Shown here: piece by piece, positions 11,289-55,086 of the stretch
Layout: every line of letters starts with the position of its first letter
How positions within the stretch are numbered: the stretch's first letter is position 1
Assembly: GCA_964016885.1 (NCBI GenBank)
Contig: OZ024766.1
Span: forward strand, 5,456,001 to 5,520,000
Origin: Eledone cirrhosa
Lineage: Eukaryota
Length of the DNA: 64,000 nt
Reading direction: 5' to 3'
Made by a program: the position numbers and the translations under genes
The notes under the pieces: model-generated
What the model saw: only the letters and a program-made list of their open reading frames with translations
What the model was told of the DNA's origin: nothing
Database searches by the model: none

Positions 11289-11353
11289 TATTTTATCTGA
11301 TGAAAGCACACCATAATTTAACTTGGTATCCTTGAAATATGTATAATGAAATA
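11289..11353 (+). ncRNA. Type I hammerhead ribozyme motif, family B
   Basis: tattttat-CTGATGA-aagcacacca..tggtatcctt-GAAA-tatgta-TA^-atgaaata; stem I has one G.U pair. Confidence 0.65.
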
Positions 11354-11754
11354 AATATGGTTTTATAAATATAGTTTCCATTTGTTAATATCGTATTTTT
11401 TACTCCAAATATTTGTTGAGTGCTTTATATCAGTTATAAAAATATTTGCTTGTTGTATCCCAACAATTTAAATAGAACTCTTACATATATATATATATAT
11501 ATATATATATATATATATATATATATTCATTACTTAAGCAAAACAAGACCACAAATTTCACAAGGAAGACATTATTAAAAGACTGTCAACATATTTCTGC
11601 ATGAACCCAGCCACCTAGCTGCTTTCTACTGCATATTGCACATTGAACACATGCCTTTACGCTTTGGCTTCTAACTAATTCACCAATCTCTCCTCTCCTA
11701 TCTCCATCTCTCTCTTTAAGATTGGTTACTCTTGAACTGTATATATCATCAGCA

Positions 11755-11996
11755 TTTCATTTTACGTCCACTTTTCCCTGCTTGCAAGGGTGGGACGGGA
11801 ACTGATTCTGGCTTGATTTCTACAGCTGGATGCCCTTCCTAACACCAACCTCATTTACAGTGAGTGCTAGGTGCTTTTTTTTGCTGTGGCACCTCAACGA
11901 CCACTTTGCAGTGGAATGATAGGGACCCCAGTCCCTATCATCTCATTTCTACAGCTGAGTAAACTGGAGCAATGTGAAATAAAATGTCTTGCTCAA
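11755..11996 (-). mobile_element. SINE family 1, 5'-truncated
   Basis: Reverse complement of CORE-to-tail. Confidence 0.8.
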
Positions 11997-12096
11997 ATAT
12001 ATAATCCTTATCAAGCCCTCTTCGGATTTTAGTCTTCACATTTATTATTGCTATATATATATATAATATTAAAAATAAAAATAAATATATATTTAC

Positions 12097-12171
12097 CTTC
12101 CGGTCAGTAGAGATTGCAGCCATTAACAGTCCATTGGGGGAGAAGCAGATGTCAATAGGAACTGATTTATA
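12097..12171 (-). CDS. PPWD1: PPWD1 exon 8 (YKSVPIDICFSPNGLLMAAISTDRK)
   Basis: CFSP.G...DRK WD motif; tacag / gtaaat sites. Confidence 0.92.
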
Positions 12172-12571
12172 CTGTAATAAAGATGACATATATATATATA
12201 TATGTGTGTGTGTGTGTGTATATAACACACAGAAAAGAGGCTATGCTCTGTGTGTATATAACACACAGAAAAGAGGCTATGCTCTGACAAATTAAAGAAG
12301 CAACAAACATAAACAAACTCAAACCAAAATTAAACAGAAAACCGAACCTCAATGGAATAGCAACAACATTGCAACTAGTAATTAAGGAGAAAATGAAGAC
12401 ATACAGAGGCATAAAACAACCAAATTAATTAAGGACAAGATAAAGACAGGGGCATACAAAAACTAAACTAATTTAAGACAAGATACAGACATACAGAGGC
12501 ACACAAGAATTAAACTAACAAAACAAACCAGACACACACAGACAGAACAAAACAACCAACTAGTGACAAAT

Positions 12572-12957
12572 ATCATCATCAACATTTTACGTCCGCTTTT
12601 TCCCTGCTTGCTAGGGTGGGACGGGAACTGATTCTGGCTTGATTTCTACAGCTGGATGTCCTTCCTAACACCAACCTCATTTACAGTGAGTGCTGGGTGC
12701 TTTTTTGCTGTGGCGCCTCCACGACCACTTTACAGTGTGGGCTGGGTGCTTTTTTGCCGTGGCACCTCCACGACCACTTTACAGTGGAATGATAGGGACC
12801 CCAGTCCCTATCATCTCATTTCTACAGCTGAGTAAACTGGAGCAATGTGAAATAAAGTGTCTTGCTCAAGGACACAACATATCACCCGGTCTGAGAATTG
12901 AACTCACAACCTTTCGATTGCAAGGCCAATGCTCTAACCACTAAGCCATGTGCCTCC
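12572..12957 (-). mobile_element. SINE family 1, full length
   Basis: Identity to the other copies. Confidence 0.85.
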
Positions 12958-13042
12958 ATATATAAACATATAAATAAATAAATAAACAAAAACACAGACA
13001 CACACCCAGATATAATGCATGTGCAAACCATGTACACAGCCC

Positions 13043-14190
13043 ACATCATCATTTTACGTCCGCCATTCCCTGCTTGCAAGGGTGGGACGGGTCCTATTCA
13101 GCACAGCATCTCTCCACTTGTCACGGTCCTTCGTCATCTCCTCCCTGAGTTTCAGCGATCTGAGGTCAGCTCTCACCACCTCTGCCCATGTCTTTCGTGG
13201 TCTTCCTTCAACTGGGATTTCTTGGCACTTCTTTACCCAGCAGTCATCCTCCATGCGCATCACATGTCCATACCAACGCAGTCTCCTCTCCCACACACCA
13301 CAACTTATCGCTCTTATACACAGTTTCTCTCTCAACACGTCACATGTCCATACCAACGCAGTCTCCTCTCCCACACACTACAACTTATCGCTCTTATACA
13401 CAGTTCCTCTCTCAACACATCACATGTCCATACCAACGCAGTCTCCTCTCCCACACACCACAACTTATCGCTCTTATACACAGTTCCTCTCTCAACACAT
13501 CACATGTCCATACCAACGCAGTCTCCTCTCCCACACACTACAACTTATCCCTCTCAGACACAGTTTCTCTCTCAACACATCACATGTCCATACCAACGCA
13601 GTCTCCTCTCCCACACACTACAACTTATCCCTCTTATACACAGTTTCTCTCTCAACACATCACATGTCCATACCAACGCAGTCTCCTCTCCCACACACTA
13701 CAACTTATCCCTCTTATACACAGTTTCTCTCTCAACACATCACATGTCCATACCAACGCAGTCTCCTCTCCCACACACTACAACTTATCCCTCTCAGACA
13801 CAGTTTCTCTCTCAACACATCACATGTCCATACCAACGCAGTCTCCTCTCCCACACACTACAACTTATCCCTCTTATACAGTTTCTCTCTCAACACATCA
13901 CATGTCCATACCAACGCAGTCTCCTCTCCCACACACTACAACTTATCCCTCTTATACACAGTTTCTCTCTCAACACATCACATGTCCATACCAACGCAGT
14001 CTCCTCTCCCACACACTACAACTTATCCCTCTTATACACAGTTTCTCTCTCAACACATCACATGTCCATACCAACGCAGTCTCCTCTCCCACACACTACA
14101 ACTTATCGCTCTTATACACAGTTTCTCTCTCAACACATCCATGCTCGGTCGGTCGGTCGCTCACACAAATAGACATTGCACATCCCACAA
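13043..14190 (-). mobile_element. RTE-clade LINE 3' fragment with a 60-bp ORF segment amplified ~15x
   Basis: Translates to RRLRWYGHVMRM..WVKKC...GRPRKTW...DRDKWR; 60-bp period over 13260-14140. Confidence 0.85.
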
Positions 14191-52258: not shown

Positions 52259-52463
52259 CTAACCCTTTTATTACCATATTTCTAATGAAAGACACTACCT
52301 ATGCCATTAACCCTTCCATTACCATATTTCTAATGAAAGACACTGTCTATGTCATTAACCCTTCCATTACCATATTTCTAATGAAAGACACTGTCTATGT
52401 CGTTAACCCTTTCATTACCATATTTCTAATGAAAGACACTGTCTATGTCGTTAACCCTTTCAT
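52259..52463. repeat. 48-bp tandem (~4 copies) of the TTAACCCTT-terminal segment
   Basis: ttaacccttccattaccatatttctaatgaaagacactgtctatgtc. Confidence 0.85.
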
Positions 52464-52467
52464 TAAA

Positions 52468-52800
52468 AAACATGGGCAGAGGTGGTGAGAGTGAAACTGT
52501 GTATAAGAGGGATAAACTGTAGTGTGCGGGAGAGAAGACTGCATTGGTATGGGCATGTGATGTGCATGGAGGTTGACCGATGGGTGAAGAAGTGCCAGGA
52601 AATGCCAGTTGAAGGATGACGCGGTAGAGGAAGACCAGGAAAAACATGGGCAGAGGTGGTGAGAGTTGACCTCAGATTGCTGAAGCTCACGGAGGAGATG
52701 ACGAGGGACTGTGTCAAGTGGAGAGATGCTGTGCTGAATAAGACCCGTCCCACCCTTGCAAGCAGGGAAAAGTGGATGTAAAATGAGGATGATGATGATA
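52468..52800 (+). mobile_element. RTE LINE 3' end with (GAT)n tail
   Basis: WYGH..GRPGKTW..KWRDAVL; tail shared with SINE family 1. Confidence 0.85.
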
Positions 52801-52824
52801 TATATATATATATATATATATGAT

Positions 52825-53180
52825 GGAGGAACATGGCTTACTTAGTGGTTAGAGCATTGGGCTTGCAATCGAAAGATTGTGAGTTCAATTCTCAGACCGG
52901 GTGATGTGTTGTTTCCTTGAGCAAGACACTTTATTTCACATTGCTCCAGTTTACTCAGCTGTAGAAATGAGATGATAGGGACTGGGGTCCCTATCATTCC
53001 ACTATAAAGTGGTCGTGGAGGTGCCACGGCAAAAAAAAAAAAAGCACCCAGCACTCACTGTAAATGAGGTTGGTGTTAGGAAGGGCATCCAGCTGTAGAA
53101 ATCAAGCCAGAATCAGTTCCCGTCCCACCCTTGCAAGCAGGGAAATAGCGGACGTAAAATGATGATGATGATGATGATGA
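52825..53180 (+). mobile_element. SINE family 1, full length
   Basis: Identity to the other copies. Confidence 0.85.
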
Positions 53181-54743
53181 TATATATATATATATATATA
53201 TGTGTGTGTGTGTGTGTGTGTATAGATGTATATAAACATGGTGTACATTAACCCTGACATGCATCATATAGGTAAATAGTCGTAGATGTGTTAGAATCAC
53301 CTACTAACATTTCAGTATACCCAATCCTTTCACCCCCACCACAGATCACTCCCCCCTGTGATGTTGAAATTTTGTCATTTTTATCATAGAGAATATGGTG
53401 GGGTATGGGTTGACGGTGTTTTTGTATGTACATACTATACATCATTTGACATATATATATATATACATATATATATACATGTATATATATATATATATAT
53501 ATATATATACATGTATATATATATACATGTATATATATATATATATATATATATATATATATATATACATGTATATATATATATATATATACATGTATAT
53601 ATATATACATGTATATATATATACATGTATATATATATATATATATATATATATATATATATATATATATATATATATATATATATATATATACATGTAT
53701 ATATATATACATGTATATATATATACATGTATATATATATATACATATATATATATATATACATGTATAAATATATATATATACATGTATATATATATAT
53801 ACATATATATATATATATATATATACATGAATATATATATATATATATATATATATATATATATATATATATACATGAATAAATATATATATATACATGT
53901 ATATATATATATACATATATATATATATATATATATATATATATATACATGAATATATATATACACATATATGTATATATATAAATATATGTACATATAT
54001 ATATATATATATACATGAATAAATATATATATACACATATATGTATATATATAAATATATGTACATATATATACGTATATAAATATATATATATACACAT
54101 ATATATATACACACATATATATATATATATATATATACACATATATATATATATACACATATATATATATACACATATATATATATATACACATATATAT
54201 ACATATATATATATATATACGTACATACATATATGTGTATATATGTATGTAAATATATATGTATAAACATATATACATTTTATATATATACACACATATA
54301 TATATATATATATATATATATATATGATGATGATGATGATATATATACACATACACATGTTAGTTGTCAGAGAGGACATTCACCTCAAAAACATGTGCAT
54401 AAAAAAGTCTTGGTCACCTGACATATCTTGTTAAAGAATGTGACAACTACTTATAGAAATTGTAATTATGGTGATGATATATATATATATATATATATAT
54501 ATATATATATATGTACATATATATATATATATATAGTATTAAGGGTACTATTTATGGTTATGTATGCAATAAAACCTTTAATGGTAATATATTATATATA
54601 CACAAACCCTAAATAGTGAGAGATAGTCATTAATTACTATCTTATTACCAGTAAGATAAATAGCTCAATGTAATAACATCAGTTGTTTTACAGAGCAGTT
54701 ATATAGAGATTACAGTAATCAAAGTTCAGTTTAAGTCATTTAT

Positions 54744-54792
54744 TTGCTTACAATTGTTTCCTCCAAACCGAGGTTTGGATTCTTCGGAGCAA
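54744..54792 (-). ncRNA. Hammerhead-like motif, family E (core variant CCGAAGA)
   Basis: Reverse complement ttgct-CCGAAGA-a tccaaac ctcg gtttgga g-GAAA-caattg-TA^-agcaa; palindromic stem III. Confidence 0.6.
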
Positions 54793-55031
54793 CTATTTAT
54801 AACATACTTGACCTCCTTTTCAACCCAAGAGACACATAAAACATATGCGCATATTGATCAACAGTGGGGTGACATTCATCAAATGATATAGCATGGCAAT
54901 TTACATATAAAGGTTACAGGATAAAAATAAAATAAAAACAAGAGTGAAAATATAGTAATAATAATAAATTTGAAGACTAAAATCCAAAGAGGGCACAATA
55001 AGGATAAATATATATCAAATATATATATATC

Positions 55032-55086
55032 AAATTTTCAGAAGATCCCGTTAAGGGTGAAAGCAGCGATTCTTTGCTTAAACTTT
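55032..55086 (+). ncRNA. Hammerhead-like motif, family F (second copy)
   Basis: Same CAGAAGA core and stems as 20782; broken relatives at ~10996-11045 and ~39512-39560. Confidence 0.5.

Follow-up and report, generated by a model that had tools for sequence, protein, structure and literature searches.

Hammerhead ribozyme motifs in probable 5′-truncated copies of Hydra-type Penelope-like elements in a 64-kb stretch of the Eledone cirrhosa genome

The window analysed here (64,000 nt of the genome of Eledone cirrhosa, assembly GCA_964016885.1, contig OZ024766.1, forward-strand positions 5,456,001 to 5,520,000) carries ten type I hammerhead ribozyme motifs of six families, A to F. The motifs very probably lie in the 3′ terminal repeats of 5′-truncated copies of Penelope-like elements (PLEs) of the Hydra clade, with five families linked to coding sequence and one likely non-autonomous. 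The copies were likely inserted into (TA)n tracts by the elements' own reverse transcriptase (RT) and GIY-YIG endonuclease, and the ribozymes are predicted to cleave the element RNA. A preliminary description of the window had listed the ten motifs, placed them in short non-coding modules near (TA)n, and read these modules as non-autonomous retroelements related to PLEs and retrozymes. The class of element is already known; new are the families, their long 3′ untranslated regions (UTRs), the fixed core variants, a shared tail hairpin, and the scale.

Exactly ten motifs in the window matched a type I descriptor composed of a CNGANGA core, stem II of at least 3 bp in which the first pair may mismatch, GAAA, stem III of at least 2 bp, UH, and stem I. 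In 100 dinucleotide shuffles of the whole window or of 200-nt blocks, the mean was 0–0.03 matches and the maximum 1, far below the observed frequency, and all ten of the proposed hammerheads are thus taken as real. The four cleavage sites predicted earlier, after positions 29761, 30006, 42669 and 49757, coincided with those given by the descriptor. Stem I comprised at least 4 bp in nine of the ten motifs, and 3 bp only in the motif at 55036–55082, because this copy is 5′-truncated inside stem I. When no mismatch was allowed in stem II, only the five family A and B motifs were recovered. The core was CUGAUGA in seven motifs, CAGAAGA in two (family E), and CCGAAGA in one (family F); the core C(U)GANGA described previously therefore holds for families A to D, and not for E and F, whose cores are not CUGA. 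Stem I of family A, given before as tattttat/ataaaata, is in fact tattttat/atgaaata with one G-U pair. At the gathering threshold, Rfam returned no hammerhead for the window and three tRNA-like matches only, and the best 150 of its 369 matches by E-value were dominated by TA-repeat miRNA models.

The identity of the modules was disclosed by longer copies elsewhere in the genome, which read, in order, RT, CxCx5C linker, GIY-YIG endonuclease, 3′ UTR of 0.9–1.6 kb, hammerhead, tail, and (TA)n. Upstream of the hammerhead, families A, E and F join an RT with a C-terminal GIY-YIG domain, colinear between independent copies (18 longer stretches); in family D the hammerhead is preceded by an RT, and by linker and endonuclease in a different frame, and in family B by a GIY-YIG endonuclease. 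Family F is nearly whole at locus L182, where an inverted truncated copy is followed by a pseudo-long terminal repeat (pLTR) with hammerhead, the open reading frame (ORF), a 3′ UTR of 1.56 kb, a second pLTR with hammerhead, and (TA)n, so that two direct hammerhead copies flank the ORF. The ORFs extend over 770 aa in family F and 611 aa in family E, and those of A and D were recovered in pieces. The earlier suggestion of a link to PLEs was thereby borne out; the RT and GIY-YIG frames that were to be looked for beside genomic copies are present for A, D, E and F, and the endonuclease for B.

According to Craig et al. (2021, PMC8557442), elements of the Hydra clade are marked by a single ORF with RT and C-terminal GIY-YIG, by DKT, RWK, CxCx5C and CxxC..CxH motifs, nearly always insert into (TA)n, and always carry a hammerhead. 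In the Eledone proteins, DKG is replaced by DKT (HADKT in F, HSDKT in E, KSDKT in A), the CxCx5C linker precedes the endonuclease in A, B, D, E and F, and the endonuclease ends of A, B, E and F have no CCHH, with CxxC and CxH flanking a conserved E and N. A protein search gave 557 relatives, with 31–40% identity among the matches listed, including a 40% match in Argonauta; a Pfam search with three Hydra ORFs gave nothing useful. By these motif marks, families A, B, D, E and F would belong with the Hydra-clade PLEs. Further features shared with the clade are the hammerhead near the 3′ end, its short stem III, the (TA)n target, inverted truncated arms, and a one-sided tail (PMC8557442). Many of the Hydra-clade hammerheads in the supplement to that paper have a mismatch, U-U or another, at the stem II base, as do C, D and E here.

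There are also differences from the published elements. Family F measures about 4.6 kb from pLTR to pLTR, with 1.56 kb from stop codon to hammerhead, whereas Hydra-clade elements are generally <3 kb; the tails are 70–90 nt long here, and 30–40 nt in the clade; and U4A and U4C cores such as those of E and F are absent from the Hydra list of PMC8557442. Few Hydra families from outside cnidarians are given in that source, in contrast to at least a dozen repeated motif families here. At L182 (oriented 202–2742), L190 and L195, other PLE types with a different RT and GIY-YIG adjoin the Hydra copies, and one of them has an 847-aa open frame.

Each of the six families was represented by at least 40 scored copies of 90–100% identity, out of first-look candidates that numbered from at least 70 to at least 2,487 per family. 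Family F is young, its copies being 98–99% alike, and many copies of C and E are near-identical. The 3′ end of each family is fixed at two points that abut (TA)n, either short or extended by an additional tail of 70–90 nt. The 5′ ends are graded and lie between 14 nt and over 1,600 nt upstream of the motif, many loci have an inverted partial copy directly upstream, and in 168 of 180 family loci a (TA)5+ tract is reached no further than 300 nt from the motif. Family A contains internal tracts of (TG)n/(TA)n type. No head-to-tail tandem array was found over any of the ten motifs, and second matches at the genomic loci were inverted. A fixed 3′ end, a variable 5′ end and an inverted arm are also the layout drawn for PLE insertions in PMC8557442. 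Because the families lead into RT/GIY-YIG ORFs, the 5′ ends vary, arms are inverted, and the 3′ ends lie in (TA)n, the modules of the window are read as 5′-truncated pLTR stubs of autonomous PLEs. The preliminary reading as non-autonomous retroelements is accordingly retained for family C only, A, B, D, E and F being truncation products of coding Hydra PLEs. A tblastn search of the window with two Hydra ORFs gave no match, and since the window thus holds no Hydra ORF remnant, only non-coding modules had been visible in it; the remark that no RT ORF is nearby is correct for PLE ORFs in the window, and does not extend to the rest of the genome, where A, D, E and F join RT.

The copies and fragments in the window are as follows.

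10994..11049 (+), family E fragment without 5′ core; another at 39525-39564 (+)
11189..11479 (+), tailed pLTR stub of family A, antisense in a PPWD1 intron and ending at (TA)21; hammerhead 11289-11353, cleavage predicted after 11345
16450..16650 (−, bounds approximate), fold-back insertion of a seventh family, G, with GAAA, 6-bp stem III, GUC and tail, without 5′ core
18341..18449 (−), C-like fragment without 5′ core; in addition a C-like tail at 20631-20717 (−)
20762..20844 (−), stub of family E in sense orientation within a PPWD1 intron; hammerhead 20782-20832 (core CAGAAGA, U4A), cleavage predicted after 20787
29605..29850 (+), family B stub, inverted short arm 29605-29637 and sense arm 29640-29850, hammerhead 29699-29769 with palindromic stem III, cleavage predicted after 29761, hairpin of the tail at 29812
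29862..30028 (+), stub of family C, with its tail inverted at 29862-29924 and a sense arm at 29957-30028; hammerhead 29962-30012, cleavage predicted after 30006
34870..35092 (−), stub of family D that includes an inverted piece of tail; hammerhead 34922-34968, cleavage predicted after 34926
40806-40887 (−), family A fragment
42535..42804 (+), tailed stub of family A; hammerhead 42613-42677, cleavage predicted after 42669, hairpin of the tail at 42727
42836..43015 (−), copy of a second A-type subfamily, hammerhead 42879-42948, predicted cut after 42889; faces the preceding copy tail-to-tail over one (TA)n tract
49606..49808 (+), stub of family B that includes an inverted piece of tail and ends at (TA)28; hammerhead 49695-49765, cleavage predicted after 49757
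54544..54975 (−), stub of family F; hammerhead 54744-54792 (core CCGAAGA, U4C), cleavage predicted after 54749, hairpin of the tail at 54663-54696
54955..55104 (+), stub of family E, in which an inverted tail is followed by a sense arm beginning inside stem I; hammerhead 55036-55082, cleavage predicted after 55079

The genome-wide abundance was estimated from 99 of 140 planned, systematically spaced 10-kb stretches (990 kb) of the 3.0-Gb genome, the second batch of which was drawn from the five largest contigs only. The descriptor found 80 motifs, or one per 12.4 kb, against 0–1 in ten shuffles, corresponding to about 242,000 motifs in the genome (bootstrap 169,000–324,000), where U3-A8 cores and family G are left out by the descriptor and both arms of fold-backs are counted. 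The motifs are clumped, as 59 of the 99 stretches held none, and with one motif per 6.4 kb the window has about twice the average density; the high density noted for it earlier was thus confirmed. The sampled motifs form 22 clusters, of which 13 were seen more than once, and Hydra-type ORF sequence makes up about 2.8% of the sampled bases. A (TA)4+ tract lay within 250 nt downstream of 70 of 79 sampled motifs, compared with 30% of random points, which upholds the proposed preference for (TA)n. Two further families occur in the sampled sequence. Family G is very abundant, with 31 hammerhead 3′ halves in the 990 kb, most of which are truncated or fold back within loop II, and its complete copies (n=5; loci L139, L161, L177, L187 and L205) combine a 6-bp stem III, a GUC site and a long loop II with an odd core, CUGAGAAG or UUGAGAAG. 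A separate family with a U3-A8 core swap and a 4-nt palindromic stem III was represented by four identical copies (L204, L251, and two in L319).

Published counts of hammerheads include 126,247 in axolotl and 235 Rfam hits in giant squid, and minimal motifs number 2,000–9,000 per genome in schistosome, coelacanth and Xenopus, against about 242,000 here. The estimate is about twice the axolotl figure, the largest in the literature consulted, in a much smaller genome. The minimal PLE hammerheads described from other genomes share with those of Eledone the type I form, a weak palindromic stem III, and an extra base at the start of stem II, and they too are mostly single and tied to truncated PLEs, with some close pairs on opposite strands.

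Conservation of the fold was assessed in 30 distinct family A copies (30 of 39 found), chosen by a 3′ flank motif and the stem I word, and not by pairing. In these, 96.1% of cells were paired, compared with 42–45% in slid controls. Double changes numbered 32, against 13.0 in shuffles that ignore relatedness, none of 500 shuffles being as high, and three stem II pairs swap A-U/G-C or U-A/C-G. The covariation anticipated across genome copies is therefore present as compensatory stem II changes, in four pairs only. Between C-like subfamilies, a stem I pair is swapped and loop II is changed, with the stems kept. Stem III is a perfect palindrome in B and F and a near-palindrome in A and D, and in these four families it forms no monomer hairpin, with self-duplex energies of −2.2 to −10.5 kcal/mol (B −10.5, F −6.4), in support of the dimer-type stem III proposed for several families; the palindromic description does not apply to C and E, in which stem III is a monomer hairpin of 4–5 bp. 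In the minimum-energy folds, the stem I helices of A, D and F are extended.

Several observations weigh against the proposed identity and activity. Family B is linked to an endonuclease, but not to an RT core; the N-terminal RWK region, recovered for F only, reads RWR, relatives showing RWK or RWR in the alignment; and every copy fetched had at least one stop, frameshift or truncation, so that no fully intact ORF was recovered. Only four family A pairs change on both sides, and on that measure 312 of 500 shuffles were as high. Minimum-free-energy folds of single modules did not contain the hammerhead fold and were not significant, with z-scores of +0.04 to −2.05. Among 107 unbiased fragments, no 5′ junction fell within 2 nt of the predicted cut, and the DNA consequently gives no footprint of cleavage. 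In addition, PLE hammerheads are reported to cleave poorly in vitro (PMC4209133), and the U4C change to lower activity, though without abolishing function in a viroid (PMC3088659); U4A as a term for a hammerhead core was not found in the literature searched.

Three explanations compete with that of ribozyme-bearing Hydra stubs. Chance matches in AT-rich, low-complexity DNA would be favoured by the low GC content and many microsatellites of the window, and the folding z-scores are weak; yet the shuffles yielded 0–1 matches against 10 in the window and 80 in the sample, and the motifs belong to repeat families with at least 40 close copies each, which makes chance extremely improbable. A second possibility is that the hammerheads are near-dead passengers or structural signals, with the fold selected for recognition by the RT and endonuclease and not for cleavage. 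Abundant families have non-canonical cores in fixed form, with CAGAAGA making up 13 of the 80 motifs sampled and CCGAAGA present in family F, no junction lies at the cut site, and Naiads spread without hammerheads, the role of the ribozyme in PLEs being stated as unclear in PMC8557442. Against this, the catalytic positions are kept in at least a dozen repeated families with unrelated stems, the separate family (4 copies) carries the U3-A8 core swap, and stem III remains self-complementary, as dimer cleavage requires. We consider the passenger explanation somewhat unlikely, and it touches the function of the motifs only, not their identity.

The remaining alternative, that the short modules are themselves non-autonomous retroelements, i.e. 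SINE-like (short interspersed nuclear element) or retrozyme-like RNAs of 140–500 nt transcribed from pLTR stubs and copied in trans, turns mostly on family C. In 21 of 25 long copies of this family, selected for length and with the other four unresolved, the element begins at one and the same base, which follows a (TG)n run and precedes the core by about 440 nt; the 25 copies share no upstream ORF. The C-like copies of the unbiased set are mostly shorter still: 18 of 30 fragments, often fold-backs, started 31–50 nt before the cut site, about 30 nt after a TATAAATACC that is common to two C-like subfamilies. Non-autonomous Chlamys PLEs have been reported (PMC8557442), and a 2026 preprint derives animal retrozymes from pLTRs. 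For families A, B, D, E and F, the graded 5′ truncation into coding sequence speaks against such an origin, as do the lack of head-to-tail arrays over the motifs and the inverted orientation of partner matches, and even C could instead represent a long 3′ UTR in which truncation always occurs at an internal microsatellite, a (TG)n/(TA)n tract of the kind present in family A. As an account of the modules in general this alternative is quite improbable, while family C taken by itself is probably non-autonomous, with a length of about 0.5 kb. A search for an autonomous partner of C returned fold-backs only, the query itself having been a fold-back, and a 3.8-kb piece upstream of two C copies was rejected as partner, as it carries an ORF of LINE (long interspersed nuclear element) type without a Hydra match. 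The animal non-LTR retrozymes (Cervera and de la Pena 2020, PMC7229834; Li et al. 2026, 10.64898/2026.07.22.740005) share with the modules short, non-coding, AT-rich units with type I hammerheads and a relation to PLEs, and family C falls within their size range. They are described as head-to-tail arrays of 150–450 bp units that yield circular RNA, whereas the modules here are single or inverted and 5′-truncated, and five families are linked to ORFs; the retrozyme-like reading of the preliminary description is thus not sustained, with no tandem arrays over the ten motifs and five of six families leading into Hydra ORFs.

The tails of several families contain a hairpin of shared shape (R-CUC, inner stem, 2-nt bulge, GAG-Y), with the short 3′ end at a TA-like site within about 10 nt. 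Among tail-bearing copies it was present in 22/29 (A), 2/3 (B), 1/2 (C), 5/14 (D), 27/30 (F) and 0/8 (E), compared with 0.9% of random windows, and in the random sample it accompanied 9 of 41 motifs with a sufficiently long tail. The closing pairs are ACUC/GAGU in A, B and C and GCUC/GAGC in D and F, a compensatory difference. In the window, hairpins are located at 11402, 29812, 42727, 16913 and 49155 (+) and at 54696, 20695, 18383 and 16523 (−), some in tails without a hammerhead part. In the supplement to PMC8557442, a hairpin of this form is also discernible in the coral consensus Hydra-2_Amil, at its 3′ end. That the hairpin has a role in insertion is our guess.

By analogy with PLE biology, the endonuclease may nick a (TA)n tract, and reverse transcription would begin at the RNA 3′ end, usually halting within 50–300 nt and often folding back, after which the second end would be joined at a TA-like site just 5′ of the conserved tail hairpin. 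Such early stops would explain why short hammerhead-bearing stubs accumulate while ORFs stay rare. The hammerhead probably serves to trim precursor RNA, tandem or read-through, cleaving as dimers in A, B, D and F, whose stem III is self-complementary, and perhaps as monomers in C and E; family C likely uses the same enzymes in trans. Because inserted copies retain an uncut ribozyme, cleavage would have to be slow or partial. A barrier to reverse transcription at stem I was also considered, and set aside as unproven: junctions of C and E cluster at the 5′ strand of stem I, but those of G lie inside loop II at a similar distance, and those of B at a TA-like site.

The window has a GC content of 35% and is rich in satellites and (TA)n tracts. 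The PPWD1 gene occupies positions 1087-28700 on the minus strand, with exons near 1.1-1.2, 7.6, 16.1-16.2, 17.7, 27.5 and 28.6 kb. Its introns contain the hammerhead of family E at 20782, in sense orientation, and the family A stub at 11189..11479, in antisense orientation. A long open frame at 61847-63337 (+) encodes a C-terminal divergent TGF-beta/BMP-like domain (E 3e-12 to BMP/activin structures), for which a protein search found no close relative. A tRNA gene-like match (50200-50271, −, 56.7 bits) adjoins a tRNA-derived SINE family with many copies across the window, often beside (TA)n. LINE RT-like remnants, presumably of RTE type, are located at 33428-34081 (−), 13258-14143 and 55650-56352, and some of them have expanded as 80- and 176-bp tandem repeats.

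As to whether such elements had been described in this lineage, which the preliminary description left undecided, one octopus family, Hydra-1_Obim of Octopus bimaculoides, is given in the supplement to PMC8557442, so that the combination of Hydra PLE, hammerhead and TA target was known from a single family, the hammerhead of which differs from all six reported here. The literature search found no paper on hammerhead abundance in octopus, and PMC8557442 alone connected the terms. A wider picture, which we hold to be possible but on balance doubtful, would place Eledone among the most ribozyme-dense animal genomes: a young burst of many Hydra PLE families and their non-autonomous parasites (family C) would have left about a quarter million hammerheads, one per 12 kb and many in introns; all families would use the tail hairpin, clade-wide and previously undescribed, as a cis signal fixing the insertion end in (TA)n; and dimer cleavage across copies would cut host pre-mRNAs and shape the transcriptome.

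The role of the hammerhead in PLEs is stated as unresolved in PMC8557442, and this genome offers a test bed in which young families, dimer- and monomer-type ribozymes, natural U4A, U4C and U3-A8 cores, and near-complete elements occur together. Family C, as a probable non-autonomous partner, would mark the minimal cis signals. Many C-like insertions are near-perfect fold-backs of 130–200 nt that turn at the 5′ stem of the hammerhead (L278-L289 and other loci), and these would yield dsRNA if transcribed. If even a small share of the hammerheads cleaves inside introns, this would matter for cephalopod RNA biology.

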